From NCBI RefSeq assembly GCF_054482595.1, contig NZ_CM137008.1: a stretch of DNA of 64,000 bases; one strand, written 5' to 3'. Below, piece after piece: positions 1 to 6,000 of this stretch. A program made the position numbers. Position 1 is the first letter of the stretch, and each line of letters opens with the position of its first letter.

Positions 1-3000
1 ATAACGGAGAAAAACTGCGAGTCACGTTCGCGCTGGACTGCTGTGACCGTGAGGCACTGCACTGGGCGGTCACTACGGGCGGCTTCAACAGTGAAACAGT
101 ACAGGACGTCATGCTGGGAGCGGTGGAACGCCGTTTCGGCAACGAGCTTCCGGCGTCTCCAGTAGAGTGGCTGACGGATAATGGTTCATGCTACCGGGCT
201 AATGAAACACGGCAGTTTGCCCGGATGTTGGGGCTTGAACCGAAGAACACGGCGGTGCGGAGTCCGGAGAGTAACGGCATAGCAGAGAGCTTCGTGAAAA
301 CGATAAAGCGTGACTACATCAGTGTCATGCCCAAACCAGACGGGTTAACGGCAGCAAAGAACCTTGCAGAGGCGTTCGAGCATTATAACGAATGGCATCC
401 GCATAGTGCACTGGGTTATCGCTCGCCACGGGAATATCTACGGCAGCAAGCCAGTAATGGGTTAAGTGATAACAGGTGTCTGGAAATATAGGGGCAAATC
501 CAATGTGCATGATATTAAGCTATTTGTTGACGAAAGGGATTGGTTATGATGTTATTCGTAATTCAGTTTGCAATAGTACTTACATGCATTGGGATAGGTG
601 GGCACTTTGGTGGAATCGGCTTAGGGGCGGCGGGGGGATTAGGGCTCGCAATTCTGACTTTTGGTTTTGGAGTCCCGCCTGATTCCCCGCCTATCACTGT
701 CATTTCCATTATTCTTGCTGTTATCACATGTATTGCTATCCTGCAGGCAGCGGGAGGTCTTGATCTTTTCGTGACAATAGCTGAAAAAATACTGCAAAAG
801 AGGCCTGGTGCAATCACGTTTCTTGGGCCAGCAGTTGCTTATCTTTTTACGGCAATATGTGGAACTGGTTATGTCGCTTTTTCCATTTATCCTGTTATTG
901 CTGAAATCGCAGCTGATGCAAGAGTGAGGCCAGAACGCGCCATGTCAATGTCAGTCATTGCCGCCAACTTTGGTCTTATAGCGAGCCCAGTAAGTGCGGT
1001 CGTTACAGGAACGATTGCGGTCTTTTCCGGATTACATGTTTCTGCTTTAGATATTTTATTGATTACTGTACCGGGAACTATTTTGGGGTGTCTTGTTGGT
1101 TGTTTGTTTGTTTATAAACGGGGCCATGATCTTGAAACGGACCCAGAGTTTCAACGCAGAGTTGCAGAAGGTGAATTTGAGTCAGTAAAAACTGGGGAAC
1201 GTACAATCAGTATTATATCTAAAACAGCGAAGAAAGCCCTGATGATTTTTATTTCTGGGATCATTTTGGTTGTTGTTTTAGGCTCTGTTCCAGAATTACG
1301 TCCGGTATGGAATACCAGTGCCGGTGTAGAACGGATGAGTATTCCAACAGCATTGCAAATCATCATGTTGACTACAGCATGTATCATTATGATGGTATGT
1401 CGGATTTCTCCATCGAAACTTGACTCAGGATCCGTTTTTAAGGCCGGTCTGGTTGGAGTTGTTGCCATATTTGGTCTTTCATGGATGATGAGTTCTTTCT
1501 TTGAAGCATGGCAAGATTTATTTAATAACACTTTCAATGATTTTCATAACCCAGTTATATTCGGTGTGATTGTGTTTGTTCTTTCTGCTGTGATTTACAG
1601 TCCCGCAGCAACTGCTGTGGCATTATTTCCTGCTGGCGTATTAATGGGATATTCGACTGAGACGCTCATAGCTTTGCTTCCGGTAACGTGCGGATCATTC
1701 ATTATTCCTGGTGGTGCACAAATTGCTTGCGTGGCGTTTGACAGAACAGGAACAACCAGAGTTGGCAAGTATGTAGTAAATCACAGTTATATGTTACCCG
1801 GTCTGATTACCGTTCTGGCTTCAACTATCTTCTGCTTCCTTTTTTCCACTATATTAGTGTAATCAGAGAAGTATTCTTACAGCTGTGTAATATTTTCTTA
1901 ATCCCCCTTCCTCAAAAACGCTGAAGGGGGCTAATTCGTCATGCCACAGTGTTATCCTCTTCATTTATTCCTTAATGTTACAGAATAACCTGCGCAATTA
2001 AGTAGGCAAAAACAACCTGGGAAATGACCATGACGAACCCAGGACGTATATAGCTATGGTTGATAACAAAGCGCCCAATTCTGGTAGTACCAGTTCTGTC
2101 AAACGCCACACAACCAATCTGATTCGCTCCGGGTATAATAAAATCACCACAAGTACAGGCAAAAATTGCAATAAGATAAGGTGCAGGAATACCCAGGGTG
2201 ACTCCTAATGGCATAATCGCAGCTACTGTCGCAGCCGGGCTCATGATCACCAGAGAAAACAAGAATACGATAAAGCCAAACAGCAAAGGCGCATCATTTA
2301 CAAGATTGCCAAAAACATTGATCAGCTCTGCCTGATAAGCATCAAAAAATGTTGCAGTCATCCACGAAACACCAAGTATTGCCACAACCCCCATCAAACC
2401 AGCACGGAACACAGAGCCACTGTTAAATTTATTGCTTGGAACTTTCCCCACAATCATGATCAATAAAGCTGCAGTCAACATAATCATCTGGATGACCATT
2501 GGGGTTGATAATCTTTTTCCATCCCACGACGGAAGAAGCTCAGTAAAAGATCCGAGAATAAGGACCAGCACGACTCCTATGGCAAAAATAGCAACCCCTT
2601 TTCTTGCACCTGGTGCAGCGACATATTCTTTTTTCTGTTCGGTGTGCATGAACTCATACTCACCTGCTGCAACACGCCTTTGAAATTCAGGATCATCTTC
2701 CAGTTCTTTACCACGCTTGTAGACTGAAAAGCTGGTAACAATTGCAGCCATAAAAAACGAAGGAAGGGCAATAGATAATATTTGCCCTAACGTGATCCCT
2801 GCATACTCATGAAGTATAGCCAGCATCCCGGCAGTTGCTGCACTCATAGGGCTGGCAGCCACTGCCACACTGGCTGCAATGACCGTTGCAGATAATGCAC
2901 GTTCTGGACGTACTTTTGCTTCAGCGGCGACTTCAGCAATAACAGGGTATAAGGAGAAAGCGACATAAGTCGTCCCACAAAATAGTGTAAATACTGAAGT

Positions 3001-6000
3001 TAATATTGGCGCTACAAAGGTTATCGCCTGTGGTTTCTTACGGAGTATCCGTTCTGCGACCCTGACTAAATAATCTAATCCTCCAACAGCTTGTAATATA
3101 CTGACAGCACTAATAACACAAATAATAATTAACATAGCAGTAATGGAGGGAGAGGAGGGTTTCAGTCCAAAGCCCAAAACCAATATTGCAACCCCTAACC
3201 CACCTCCAGCACCAAGCCCCATTCCGCCGTATTTTCCGCCGATTCCAATACAGGCCAGAACAATAAATAGTTGTATAAAAAATAGAGCGTCCATTTTTCA
3301 ACCTCAAAGATATTCCCGGATATAATATCCGGGGAATCTTAAACATTATAATTCTTAACTATTTTAAAAGTGATTTTGCAATCTCTATTTGTTTTTTGAC
3401 AGCATCAGGTCCGGTTCCACCATAAGACATCCTGGCCTTAATGCAAGCCTCCAGAGAAATACTTTCATAAATATCTTTTTCTATTTTATTATCAAATGTG
3501 GAGAATTCTTCCATAGTAAGCTCTTCTAACATTTTTTTATGTTTAATACAGTAATTTACTGCACTACCAACAATATGGTGAGCTTCTCTGAAAGGAATAC
3601 CTTTACGGACCAGATAATCGGCCATATCTGTTGCATTCGAGAATCCTCGAGCGGCTGCTGCACGCGTATTTTCGGCAAGGATAACCATTTTTTCGATCAT
3701 AGGTGCCATTATTCTTAAGCTGGCCTGTAGAGTATCCATTGAGTCATAGACCTGCTCTTTATCCTCGCTCATGTCTGTATTATACGCTAGCGGTATGCCT
3801 TTCATAATAGTCAGCATGGCCATCAGATTTCCATACATTCTCCCACCTTTACCACGCATTTTTTCCGCCACATCAGGGTTCTTTTTCTGCGGCATGATGC
3901 TGGATCCTGTACAGAAGTCATCAGAAAGTTCAATAAATTTAAAGTCTTGGCTAGAGAATAAAATCAGTTCCTCTGAAAGGCGAGTTAGATGCATAAAACA
4001 CATCGCTGCTGCCGCGGTGAATTCGACCATATGGTCGCGGTCACTGACAGAATCAATACTATTCTCAGTTGGCTTATCAAAACCAAGTTCACGAGCCGTA
4101 AAATTACGATCAATAGGGAATGTCGTACCGGCGAGAGCCGCTGCCCCCAAAGGGCATTCTCCCATCCGTTGATACAGATCTTCAAACCTATTCCAGTCAC
4201 GACGCAACATCCAGTAATATGCCATAATCCAGTGAGATAAAAGAATGGGCTGACCTGTTTGCAAATGAGTATAGCCTGGCATGATGACATTAATATTGTT
4301 TTCTGCTTTGTTAATTATTATTTTTTGCAGGTTGGTAATATCCTCTTGAATTTCACGGATAATTGCTCGCATATGCATTTTAGAATCAACAGTGGTTTGA
4401 TCATTACGACTTCGCCCCGTGTGGAGTTTACCACCAACAGGGCCAATAATTTCAGTCATCCGTCTTTCAATGGCCATATGAATATCTTCATCTACAGTAT
4501 CGAAAATGAATTGGCCGTCTTCAATTTCTTTACTTACTTGTCTCAAACCTCTAATAATTGTATTGGCTTCATCCTGTGTGATTATTCCCTGACGTCCTAA
4601 CATCGTGGCATGAACTATGCTTCCTTGAATATCAAAGGGGCATAGGCGCTGCTCCAGCGTGATAGTTGCATTATATTGTTCAACGAGTTTATTTGTTGGC
4701 ATATCAAAACGTCCGCCCCATAATTTCGTAGACATCCTCATCCTCCTGCTTATTCATAAGTAATTAGAAAAAATGTACCGGCTGGATTTAATATCAGGTT
4801 ATAAAATGATGTTGGCAATTGTCAACAAATGCGGCGATTAAATTGACTTATATTGCCATTAGTTTTAATCATTAAATCATAATGTTTGTTAATGTTTTAA
4901 TGATAAGCATGGAGATATACCTCACGTTTAACATGTTATTTGACGAGAAATATATTTAATAAATTCAATTATGCAAAAACATGAAAACAAGAGTTCAAAT
5001 GGGTCTTTGATAAAAGTCAAAAATTCTCTCTTTTCTTCTGCGTCAGATAACATCTAAGTTATCAACTCTTGTCTGGCGTCGGTTACTTTACGGTTATGAA
5101 TTATCTTATCCTAGCGATATTGAATTGATTCAAATAACAGGAAATGGTCGTAGTACAAAGGACAGAAAATGATGTTGATAGAAGTGATGGACAGCACATA
5201 AAATTATCGTAGGGTTGGCGGCGATCGTCCGGCAAATGCTATCGACGGTATTAAAACCCTGCACGAAATCGGCTTCGATACCCTCAAACTGAATGGTTGT
5301 AAAGAACTGGGGCTATTCGTGAAGCTTTTGGCAATCAGATTGAGTCTGGTCTTGATTTCCACGATTGCACCAGCGTGCTGATAGTGGTTGATAGTGAAAG
5401 CACGGATTAAAGAACTGGAACCGTATCGCGCGCTGTTTATTGAAAAGCCGGTGCTGGCGGAGCATGATGATGTGATTAAGCAGTCTGAAGAGTCAGAAAC
5501 TTACAGTTGTCTTTTAAGAGCACCTGCAGGATTGTTTCTCAGTTTCTGCCTGCTCTGGCATTACCCTATTTTTCCCATGTTGAATACGGATACGCCTGAG
5601 GACATTTTGTCTCTGTTGGGCACTCTTTGGCCTCGGGGAGTTACTGTTCGCTTACCGGATATGCCTGCCGTGCAGACCACAGGCTTACCTGGTTATTTGT
5701 TTGATCGCGTCCGGGGCCAGCGATGCGAAATAGTACGCTATGTTACCAGTGAGTTATTTGTCGGTGCGCGTCTTTGTAAATAAAGACTGGCGTTCATTGT
5801 TATGCATTGATCATTATGGCGAACAATTTACGTTTACGCGTACGTGACTATGTCATCACCCTGGCGGTACCCGTGTTCGTGACCGCCATGCTCTGTATGG
5901 CAGCGGTTATACTGTAGCGTTTTATCCTGATATGGGGTCCATCGAGTGTGTTGGCTATACCGATAGAAATTATCTTGTTAGCTTTCGTTCTGACATAACA

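Follow-up and report, generated by a model that had tools for sequence, protein, structure and literature searches.

An accessory argininosuccinate lyase-family gene in Escherichia coli and its linked Dcu-type carriers as the core of a probable uptake-and-cleavage module for a fumarate-containing compound

In Escherichia coli, the aspA-dcuA operon encodes an aspartase together with an L-aspartate/fumarate-succinate exchanger. [quoted passage not shown] EDDS lyase (6G3D) and argininosuccinate lyase (ASL; ArgH, EC 4.3.2.1), with the structures 1TJ7, 2E9F and duck delta-2 crystallin 1K7W, provide two further points of comparison. Here, we describe a cassette related to these systems, located within a stretch of 64,000 nucleotides from contig NZ_CM137008.1 (assembly GCF_054482595.1), referred to below as the window. 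A literature search turned up no paper on this lyase-Dcu module, which is apparently unstudied.

The original prediction placed an ASL-family lyase gene and two Dcu-type carrier genes at positions 540-4741, and all of these parts were found at essentially those coordinates. Also as predicted, the lyase gene is co-oriented with one carrier gene (dcuX2), and the second paralog (dcuX1) is convergent with them (Table 1). The functional unit is larger than that span, however, and includes a gene for an FCD/GntR-type regulator, which in intact copies is transcribed divergently from dcuX1; the regulator gene is absent from the window because the window starts inside IS2. The dcuX1 ORF opens at TTG 540, and the ATG at 546, which has a GAAAGGGA ribosome-binding site, is the PGAP start. 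The lyase ORF occupies 3359-4741 on the minus strand, with a likely start at ATG 4735, 6 nt past AGGAGG and again the PGAP start. The hairpin between the convergent carrier genes (folding energy -14 kcal/mol on the plus strand and -17.9 on the minus strand; z-scores -2.4 and -2.7) is likely to be a bidirectional terminator, and a further hairpin lies in the lyase/dcuX2 gap (-17.9 kcal/mol; z-score -2.75). Beyond the AT-rich stretch at the right edge are pseudogene fragments, annotated as pseudogenes by PGAP at the equivalent positions of E. coli SMS-3-5.

Table 1. Features of the cassette and its borders, in window coordinates
Feature	Position	Strand	Remarks
IS2, right-hand part	1..502	+	InsD C-terminus at 111-491; terminal repeat ends ...GGGGCAAATCCA at 502
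TTTGTTGAC half-site	523..531	+	15-23 nt before the dcuX1 start codon; shared with the element upstream of the lyase
dcuX1	546..1862	+	438-aa carrier of the Dcu family; orthologous to the carrier encoded next to the regulator in modules of other genera
GC-rich hairpin CCCCCTTC...GAAGGGGG	1903..1930		between convergent dcuX1 and dcuX2
dcuX2	1978..3294	-	438-aa carrier of the Dcu family; follows the lyase gene as second gene of their operon
Intercistronic hairpin CCCGGATAT-TAT-ATATCCGGG	3315..3333	-	lyase/dcuX2 gap; from a pattern scan
ASL-family lyase	3359..4735	-	458 aa; Dcu-linked clade A; upstream of dcuX2
Clade signature in lyase			E28, T114, T115, T160, G161, D264, K266, K292, T320, S323, K349, N394
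AT-rich non-coding stretch	4742..5200		GC 0.31; right edge of cassette; includes lyase control region
Putative lyase-dcuX2 promoter	4798..4830	-	-35 TTGACA 4825-4820, 16-nt spacer, -10 TATAAC 4803-4798
Operator-like palindrome TTGTTGACAATTGCCAACA	4810-4830	-	overlaps putative promoter

The lyase closely resembles ArgH. It has the same length, contains both Lyase_1 and ASL_C2, and carries all three superfamily motifs (TGRSRNDQ, GYTHLQxxQP and GSSIMPQKKNPD). It scores 615 bits with TIGR00838, is 50-53% identical to proven ASLs, and matches the ASLs of T. thermophilus (2E9F) and E. coli (1TJ7) with E-values of 5e-136 and 1e-121; EDDS lyase is a far more distant match (1e-64 versus 5e-136). The enzyme retains 104 of the 120 positions at which ASLs show 93% invariance or more, among them the catalytic residues Ser283, Lys289, Asn291, Glu296, His162 and Thr161, along with R115, N116, Y323, D330 and K331 (duck numbering). 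Genome annotation calls the enzyme just "argH". Nonetheless, the claim that it is an extra lyase, distinct from the core argH product, is well borne out. The carrier strain SMS-3-5 has a separate housekeeping argH in its argECBH cluster, the product of which is only 43% identical to the island lyase. Rather than grouping tightly with housekeeping ArgH, the lyase falls into a clade of its own (clade A), which is monophyletic in 100 of 100 neighbor-joining bootstraps and includes sequences from E. coli, Citrobacter, Budvicia, Anaerosinus, the Campylobacter lari group, Vibrionaceae, Helicobacter and Sutterellaceae. Unlike argH, the gene is accessory, has moved horizontally and lies outside an arg operon; no ARG box was found upstream of it by a search that gave tandem boxes in the argE/argCBH control region. 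It is also usually paired with a Dcu carrier gene and often with an FCD/GntR regulator gene, and its lyase activity, in contrast to that of ArgH, is a predicted one.

Both carriers exceed the curated cut-offs of NCBIfam Dcu models (dcuX1: PRK09412, 440 bits; PRK12489, 436; TIGR00770, 407; dcuX2: PRK09412, 460), and the two proteins are 51% identical to each other. The dcuX1 product is 52-62% identical to the regulator-side Dcu protein of Budvicia and Anaerosinus, the dcuX2 product 56-62% identical to the lyase-adjacent Dcu protein of Budvicia, Anaerosinus, Campylobacter, Photobacterium and Sutterellaceae, and the regulator 50-62% identical to its Budvicia and Anaerosinus orthologs. By such comparisons, all four genes (lyase, dcuX1, dcuX2 and regulator) are shown to be orthologous across phyla. 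In clade A, 27 of 30 loci (23 of 26 when repeats of the same genome are counted once) have a Dcu gene at a distance of 0-123 bp downstream of the lyase gene, and one of the remaining three is a contig end. These linked loci come from E. coli, Citrobacter, Budvicia, Anaerosinus (Negativicutes), the Campylobacter lari group, Photobacterium, Enterovibrio, Parasutterella and Sutterella, while no Dcu gene was found near the ordinary ASL gene in 57 loci (at most 58% identity; flanks of up to 8 kb on each side, shorter on small contigs). Helicobacter and C. volucris have kept the lyase without a carrier. When 28 loci were clustered, the only recurrent neighbors were genes for Dcu carriers, the GntR regulator and MmgE/PrpD proteins.

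The arrangement is like that of aspA-dcuA, with a lyase gene of the fumarase/aspartase superfamily directly ahead of a Dcu carrier gene in the same orientation, and a second aspA-dcuA-like pair is present in the same E. coli island. However, the module lyase is on the ASL rather than the aspartase branch, the carriers are a Dcu subfamily of their own (32% and 37% identity of dcuX1 and dcuX2, respectively, to the DcuA-like protein of the island), and the module adds the second, convergent carrier and a dedicated regulator with its own putative operator. The likeness to 2SL (set alongside here by its description) and EDDS lyase is that of a class I lyase, encoded next to transporters, that obtains fumarate from an external or damage-derived adduct. 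Some Sutterellaceae have genes for MmgE/PrpD (YxeQ-like) and M20 amidohydrolase (YxeP-like) proteins near the module, as in the 2SL cluster, whereas no acetyltransferase, amidohydrolase or ABC transporter gene belongs to the modules of E. coli, Citrobacter, Budvicia and Anaerosinus.

The candidate control region upstream of the lyase gene is likewise shared. The best match to AATTGTCGACAATT in the whole window is at 4817-4830, 82-95 bp upstream of the lyase start codon, and Citrobacter, Budvicia, Anaerosinus and several Sutterellaceae loci carry the same palindrome at the corresponding place. Allowing up to two mismatches, AATTGTCGACAATT is found 70-110 bp upstream of the lyase gene in five genus-level groups; a match anywhere in the locus is present in about 25 clade-A loci versus 3 of 57 canonical ASL loci. 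The half-site at dcuX1, which upstream-region comparison finds only partly conserved in Citrobacter, might conceivably be a regulatory element as well.

We favor, with moderate confidence, a model in which the cassette is the core of a self-contained, mobile and substrate-regulated uptake-and-cleavage module, built like aspA-dcuA and acting on argininosuccinate or a close guanidino analogue. In gut and water bacteria of several phyla, the module probably imports a fumarate-containing compound and splits off fumarate; the tight cross-phylum linkage of lyase and Dcu genes fits the earlier proposal of catabolic cargo for fumarate/succinate-type compounds. The FCD/GntR regulator would repress the lyase-dcuX2 operon, binding to the conserved palindrome that overlaps its -35 box. 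The Dcu-type carriers would bring in a fumarate adduct of the N-succino type, most probably releasing succinate or fumarate in return. The retained invariant positions and the strong matches to solved ASLs point to argininosuccinate or a very close guanidino analogue as the most probable substrate, which the lyase would cleave by normal ASL beta-elimination into fumarate and arginine (or the amine of the analogue). The fumarate might then accept electrons in anaerobic fumarate respiration or act as a source of C4 units, with the amine supplying nitrogen. The same logic, import of a fumarate adduct and release of fumarate, applies to aspA-dcuA, and the E. coli island around the module contains genes (aspA2-dcuA-like, ansB2, dcuC-pepT, isoaspartyl peptidase and dcuR) that are routes from asparagine, aspartate or peptides to fumarate. 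Counting against argininosuccinate, which is a C10 compound, we know of no Dcu-family carrier with a cargo beyond C4-dicarboxylates or aspartate, and a literature search revealed no environmental or host supply of argininosuccinate that bacteria are reported to exploit. Furthermore, the ASL equilibrium favors synthesis (Kc 0.011, quoted in PMC9706529), so that cleavage needs product removal.

Could the module work by the same logic on some other fumarate adduct, such that the name argH is wrong? This alternative is possible, though we consider it less probable. Candidate substrates would be guanidinosuccinate or another N-succino-guanidine, a modified argininosuccinate, an iminodisuccinate-like N-succino amino acid or an S-succino compound, and a Dcu-type carrier would be better fitted to a small adduct than to argininosuccinate. 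In 13 loci, the module comes with a gene of the MmgE/PrpD family, which includes iminodisuccinate epimerase and YxeQ of the 2SC cluster. In addition, TIGR00838 over-calls, passing lyases of only 30% identity with scores (374-400 bits) above its cut-off. The replacements D33E, L297K, K325T (K/R325T) and Q328S (duck numbering) are identical in all 90 clade-A sequences, at positions where at least 95% of a set of 124 diverse ASLs agree. K325 has been described as an active-site residue that is hydrogen-bonded to E296 (PMC2779060), and loss of D33, L297, K325 and Q328 could mean a different substrate. About eight more clade-specific residues set the lyase apart, some of them beside motifs C1 and C2. 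The ASL-superfamily lyases of about 500 aa, which are encoded next to X-type Dcu carriers in Sutterellaceae and presumably act on other compounds, also differ at these replaced positions. Against such a shift, L297K and K325T could be a function-preserving charge swap around E296, the enzyme has the identity to proven ASLs described above, and its 104 conserved positions include many that are gone from the 500-aa lyases, among them R14, F15, D40, S44, D87, H91, Q118, Y323, D330 and K331. The E. coli and Citrobacter modules are without MmgE/PrpD, acetyltransferase and amidohydrolase genes, and the known route for guanidinosuccinate is an amidinohydrolase rather than a lyase (PMC12623156). One sister-group locus (L032) has the canonical residues, yet lies within a lyase-EamA-Dcu-MmgE/PrpD-GntR cluster, so that residue change and Dcu linkage are not strictly coupled.

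It is unlikely that the enzyme is an ordinary ASL isozyme acting on internally made argininosuccinate, with the carriers as aspartate/fumarate (or succinate) exchangers. Aspartate would enter for ArgG and fumarate would leave, giving an arginine-from-citrulline or nitrogen-shuttle module with no adduct import. The clearly ASL-like sequence with its full set of catalytic residues and the carrier-less lyases of Helicobacter and C. volucris are consistent with this scheme, as are the C4 substrates of Dcu carriers; DcuA is reportedly an L-aspartate/fumarate exchanger serving nitrogen uptake, according to the Unden laboratory. However, neither argG nor any other arg gene recurs beside the module in the 28 clustered loci, the ARG box is missing, and both hosts examined, E. 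coli SMS-3-5 and Sutterella UMGS665 (the latter with two copies), already own a housekeeping ASL. The dedicated regulator with its own putative operator suggests induction by an external organic acid, and deamination of aspartate via ArgG costs ATP, while the AspA of the same island does so free.

Returning to the uptake-and-cleavage module and its mobility, the view that the block was horizontally acquired is supported by several results. The cassette (503-4741) has a GC content of 0.421 and GC3 of 0.34-0.36, so that it is AT-rich relative to the cob genes as predicted (cobU/S/T: GC 0.51-0.54, GC3 0.48-0.54; window mean GC 0.481), and ranks 10th lowest in GC among 299 sliding windows of 4.2 kb. 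It is present in 141 of 5,426 complete E. coli genomes (2.6%), while orthologous copies occupy three different chromosomal sites in Citrobacter, and another is on a conjugative plasmid. Comparison of E. coli with Citrobacter gave dN/dS values of 0.02-0.08 over all three genes (dcuX1, 0.05-0.08; dcuX2 and lyase, each about 0.03) with dS above 0.9, indicating long-term purifying selection. It is very improbable that the E. coli cassette is merely an inert, decaying hitch-hiker in a larger island and hence without current function in this strain: despite its rarity, its pseudogene neighbors (ibrB, a TonB receptor and clbP/clbQ debris), the IS2 in the dcuX1 control region here and its interruption by IS2, IS5 or IS1 in several E. 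coli genomes, the three ORFs are unbroken in this genome and in most of the E. coli genomes that carry them (99.9-100% identity), and the module is under selection and conserved across phyla.

The original prediction also had the cassette bounded by an IS2 end. That end is present, and the NCBIfam IS2 TnpB model matches the InsD C-terminus with 285 bits, but it does not mark the boundary of the acquired block. Homology to the uninterrupted SMS-3-5 locus begins at 503, which places the insertion point 43 bp upstream of the dcuX1 ATG, in the regulator-dcuX1 intergenic region, and the junction was seen in no other genome when the 5,426 complete E. coli genomes were searched. IS2 is thus a secondary, late and strain-specific insertion into the dcuX1 control region, not the vehicle of the block, and is no evidence of how the block arrived. 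In this genome, it has cut dcuX1 off from its native upstream region and left the lyase-dcuX2 operon and its control region intact.

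The AT-rich block beside the IS2 end holds three intact genes (see the table below). As had been predicted, an extra gene of the argininosuccinate lyase (ASL) family is co-oriented with a Dcu carrier gene (dcuX2) and a second, convergent Dcu paralog (dcuX1) faces the pair; all three ORFs were found. Only 65 bp separate the lyase gene from dcuX2, and the two carriers are 51% identical to each other. The predicted difference in composition from the cob genes was also borne out, with a GC content of 0.421 and a GC3 of 0.34-0.36 for the cassette, compared to 0.51-0.54 and 0.48-0.54, respectively, for cobU, cobS and cobT. 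In a ranking of 299 sliding 4.2-kb windows, the cassette is one of the lowest ten. The dcuX1 reading frame is open from a TTG at 540, upstream of the annotated start. For the lyase gene, an ATG at 4741 abuts the AGGAGG motif and is an unlikely start.

Features of the lyase-Dcu cassette and of neighbouring DNA (window positions)
Feature	Position	Strand	Remarks
IS2, right-hand part	1-502		InsD C-terminus at 111-491 (NCBIfam IS2 TnpB, 285 bits); terminal repeat ends ...GGGGCAAATCCA at 502
dcuX1	546-1862	+	Intact ORF; PGAP start is ATG 546, with ribosome-binding site
GC-rich hairpin	1903-1930		Between dcuX1 and dcuX2
dcuX2	1978-3294	-	Intact ORF
ASL-family lyase gene	3359-4735	-	458 aa; intact; ATG 4735 placed 6 nt after AGGAGG
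Candidate -10, TATAAC	4803-4798
Candidate -35, TTGACA	4825-4820
Palindrome, AATTGTCGACAATT type	4817-4830		Best match in the 64-kb window; 82-95 bp before the lyase start codon
Gene debris	5200-6168		Galactonate-dehydratase, clbP-like and clbQ-like fragments
Further ORF in debris	5388-5783
clbQ-like fragment	~6045-6167		Thioesterase start
ibrA-like gene	6169-7401		PAPS-reductase-like; intact
ibrB-like ORF	7386-7802		138 aa (214 aa in strain FUJ80154)
TonB-dependent receptor, split	8401-9579, 9606-10574		Two ORFs
Very large ORF, plus gene run	26745-34802	-	2,685 aa; downstream of yeeO/yeeN-type core genes

Is the lyase simply another housekeeping ArgH? Strain SMS-3-5, an E. coli carrier in which the cassette is uninterrupted, has a normal argH in argECBH, adjoining oxyR, and the island lyase is 43% identical to the product of that gene. 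No arg genes were found near the island lyase. Among solved structures, the closest is the ASL of T. thermophilus (E-value 5e-136), with E. coli ASL at 1e-121. Its nearer relatives (65-93% identity) come from a wide range of phyla and occur in Citrobacter (90-93%), the Negativicute Anaerosinus (79%), Budvicia and Limnobaculum (77-79%), the Campylobacter lari group (74-77%), Photobacterium and Enterovibrio (75-76%), Helicobacter (70%), and Parasutterella and Sutterella (65-72%). In a neighbour-joining tree of 91 lyases from the retrieved loci, the island lyase and these relatives form a monophyletic group (clade A) in 100 of 100 bootstraps, next to which, as sister group, stand a few Sutterella-type ASLs that have the canonical residues. 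The low identity to the argECBH copy, the separate clade and the different gene context rule out a housekeeping ArgH or a recent duplicate of it, and the lyase is distinct from core argH, as the original prediction had proposed.

The name argH, which PGAP assigns to the island lyase, comes via the model TIGR00838, on which the protein scores 615 bits over residues 7-459 (cut-off 279.5); PF00206 and PF14698 are precomputed for an identical protein. Membership in TIGR00838 is a permissive test, because Sutterellaceae lyases of about 500 aa and only about 30% identity also pass it, at 374-400 bits, and for the same reason the name is no evidence of function. With this equivalog model, no fewer than two clades of non-housekeeping lyases receive the ArgH label, a point of importance when metabolism is reconstructed from genomes. 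These additional ASL-superfamily lyases, 29-31% identical to the island enzyme, are found at two Sutterellaceae loci, L009 (1426-4339) and L035 (3870-5375 and 9520-11082), and the one at L009 directly adjoins a Dcu carrier of the same subfamily as those of the cassette. They are likely mis-annotated as argH, since both of those scanned (L009 1426-2928 and L035 3870-5375) score above the cut-off.

The key result is the linkage of the lyase to a Dcu gene. When profiles of the carriers and of the associated regulator were run over every retrieved locus, the lyase in 27 of the 30 clade-A loci (23 of 26 with repeats from the same genome collapsed) proved to be followed, at a distance of 0-123 bp, by a Dcu gene; of the three others, one is a contig end and two come from C. 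volucris and a Helicobacter. The 57 loci with an ordinary ASL (at most 58% identity) all lacked a Dcu gene in the flanks, which reached up to 8 kb on each side, less where contigs were small. Carriers next to the lyase are orthologous to one another, with 56-62% identity to dcuX2. In Budvicia and Anaerosinus, the carrier on the side of the regulator is an ortholog of dcuX1 (52-62% identity), and the regulators are orthologous too (50-62%). Both cassette carriers score over the cut-offs of TIGR00770, PRK09412 and PRK12489 (407-440 bits for dcuX1, 419-460 for dcuX2), and their orthologs carry PF03605. They score about equally on both NCBIfam DcuA/DcuB subfamily models and are only 32-37% identical to the DcuA-like protein of the island, which was the sole comparator of the DcuA/DcuB type. 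No Dcu structure was found in the PDB.

This arrangement resembles the aspA-dcuA type of operon, in which a lyase gene is likewise followed by a co-oriented Dcu gene, and it is kept across taxa. It differs from that operon in its ASL-branch enzyme, its distinct Dcu subfamily and its own regulator. Searches of the literature, including a search by RefSeq protein accessions, found no publication on the module.

Three subunits together make up the active site. Of 120 positions with the same residue in at least 93% of the sampled ordinary ASLs, clade A keeps 104, among them many that are lost in more distant lyases. The catalytic and fumarate-binding residues R115, N116, T161, H162, S283 (in the loop), K289, N291, E296 and K331 (numbered as in duck delta-2 crystallin) are present and invariant in clade A. 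The island lyase does not keep the full set of ASL-invariant positions: D33, L297, K325 and Q328, each of which 95% or more of 124 diverse ASLs have, are exchanged for other residues, and the changes D33E, L297K, K/R325T and Q328S are identical in 90 of 90 clade-A sequences. Other residues specific to clade A are V119T and A120T, directly after motif C1, and HLQ-TG-QP inside motif C2.

Sampaleanu et al. 2002 reportedly included D33 and K325 among the active-site residues that they examined by mutagenesis. K325 (K323 in the goose enzyme) is an active-site residue hydrogen-bonded to E296 (PMC2779060), and our reading of the four replaced positions rests on this one statement and on conservation. 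Perhaps L297K and K325T exchange charges around E296 and leave function intact; they could also, together with D33E and Q328S, reshape the leaving-group pocket. The association with Dcu may be older than the residue changes, because a sister-group locus of the Sutterella type (L032) has canonical residues in a similar lyase-EamA-Dcu-MmgE/PrpD-GntR cluster.

What, then, would the module do? By analogy with aspA-dcuA, a copy of which is present in the same island, the carriers would take up a fumarate adduct, with succinate or fumarate as the most likely counter-substrate, the lyase would free fumarate for fumarate respiration together with an amine, and the regulator would sense the substrate. 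The tight lyase-Dcu linkage across taxa fits the catabolic, fumarate-related role that had been predicted. Fumarate respiration fed by aspartate and malate through Dcu carriers is a colonisation factor of enteric bacteria; with the module, there would be one more supply of fumarate, and possibly one of arginine nitrogen. Because so much ASL-specific sequence is kept, argininosuccinate or a very close guanidino analogue would be the most parsimonious substrate, a proposal that we give roughly an even chance of being correct.

A second and rather less likely reading, which that same retained sequence argues against, is that the clade-A lyases, instead of being argininosuccinate lyases, represent a class of the ASL family with a new specificity, acting on some other fumarate adduct that occurs in nature and is imported by a dedicated Dcu subfamily. 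Examples would be guanidinosuccinate, split to guanidine and fumarate, or a different N-succino compound. The replacement of four near-invariant ASL positions points this way, as do the fact that known Dcu substrates are small, the repeated presence of an MmgE/PrpD gene nearby in Sutterellaceae (13 loci), the other ASL-superfamily lyases with the same kind of carrier nearby (L009 and L035), and the precedent within the superfamily, 2SL, for dedicated catabolism of other fumarate adducts (PMC9706529). If correct, a shift in specificity would imply an unrecognised nutrient and electron-acceptor pathway common to Sutterellaceae of the gut, Citrobacter, the Campylobacter lari group and some extra-intestinal lineages of E. 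coli, and would expose systematic mis-annotation of argH. A biosynthetic isozyme coupled to an aspartate/fumarate shuttle is a poorer fit to the data than the argininosuccinate-type catabolic role, and we consider it improbable.

The control region of the lyase gene is conserved as well. A palindrome of the AATTGTCGACAATT type lies upstream of the gene in E. coli, Citrobacter, Budvicia and Anaerosinus, and among the retrieved loci it occupies an equivalent position in five genus-level groups. Matches anywhere in the locus occur in about 25 clade-A loci versus 3 of 57 canonical ASL loci. In E. coli the palindrome overlaps a candidate -35 element, which a 16-nt spacer separates from the candidate -10. 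Counts of sigma-70 and terminator patterns in the cassette show no excess over shuffled sequences, and the proposed promoter rests on conservation rather than on the pattern scan. A search for ARG boxes with up to three mismatches found none upstream of the lyase gene, although the same search found the tandem boxes at argE/argCBH, and control by ArgR was rejected on these grounds. Given the conserved palindrome and the lack of an ARG box, we infer control by the FCD/GntR regulator instead. No riboswitch or other known RNA element was found in the cassette or in eight orthologous loci at the Rfam gathering thresholds, nor did a search of window 1-12000 at E-values up to 0.1 find one in the cassette.

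The original prediction took the IS2 end to be a boundary of the block, and this part did not survive. In uninterrupted carriers such as SMS-3-5, that place is occupied by a FadR/GntR-type regulator gene (FCD domain), divergent from dcuX1. The match to the SMS-3-5 locus starts exactly at window 503, which is 43 bp before the dcuX1 ATG and falls in the middle of GCACATtATGTGC, a perfect palindrome (13 bp, 6-1-6) between the regulator gene and dcuX1 (14994-15006 of the uninterrupted locus, L001); this palindrome is not conserved in Citrobacter. The IS2/dcuX1 junction is absent from all other complete E. coli genomes (5,426 searched). No IS copies were found that flank the block and are common to carriers, there being one IS2 end in the window, which begins inside the element, and no IS2 at this place in uninterrupted carriers such as SMS-3-5. 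Because homology starts at 503 and no other complete genome has the junction, the IS2 is, on this comparison, neither vehicle nor boundary but a latecomer that entered the control region of dcuX1 in this strain only.

The cassette occurs in 141 of 5,426 complete E. coli genomes at 99-100% identity, always in the same chromosomal region near cobUST, and is interrupted by IS2, IS5 or IS1 in some strains. The enclosing island also carries a second aspA followed by the DcuA-like carrier gene, a second ansB, dcuR, dcuC-pepT and an isoaspartyl peptidase gene. An E. coli from wastewater also has the block from the TonB receptor gene to aspA (TonB receptor, ibrBA, lyase, dcuX2, dcuX1, FCD regulator, dcuR, ansB, DcuA-like carrier, aspA) on a conjugative plasmid, IncFIB/IncI-gamma/K1 (L094, NZ_AP022088.1 125666-145039), with a lyase at 97.8% identity. 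Three Citrobacter species have the same four genes at three different chromosomal sites, with a module GC content of 0.44-0.46 against flanks of 0.49-0.56. The module has reached Citrobacter, the Campylobacter lari group and, in E. coli, a minority lineage, where it is also plasmid-borne. In metagenomes from the gut it is very common, judging from clade-A protein clusters of 600-1,100 member sequences each. All three genes have dN/dS values of 0.02-0.08 when E. coli is compared with Citrobacter, and dS is near saturation, which indicates purifying selection of long standing and not decay; that the module is inert cargo, again a poorer fit to the data, is highly improbable.

Another class of fumarate-adduct cluster, the yxe/2SL cluster for S-(2-succino)cysteine, differs in its partner genes. 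There the lyase is adjoined by the YxeL acetyltransferase, the YxeP deacetylase and an ABC transporter, all missing from the modules of E. coli, Citrobacter, Budvicia and Anaerosinus, and MmgE/PrpD and M20 genes occur only at some Sutterellaceae loci. In many Sutterellaceae an MmgE/PrpD gene directly adjoins the lyase-Dcu pair, and the arrangement is not always the same (L008, L011, L018-L022, L024, L025, L027, L028 and L032). An M20 amidohydrolase is found at L008 and L024, and at L009 without MmgE/PrpD; the enterobacterial module has neither. In a Campylobacter sp. (L007, 11579-17282), the inserted lyase-Dcu pair lies beside native genes for RidA, DcuC, a MetC-like protein, an ADSL-like lyase (best NCBIfam match XcbD, 465 bits) and MmgE/PrpD, a native cluster that resembles the yxe/2SL cluster for S-(2-succino)cysteine breakdown (PMC9706529).

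The gene debris that fills the gap between the cassette and the ibrA-like gene resembles what is left of a colibactin (pks) island at one of its ends; the identities of its fragments come from the PGAP pseudogene notes for the identical region of SMS-3-5. The ibrB-like gene and the TonB-dependent receptor gene are pseudogenes here, and likewise in SMS-3-5.
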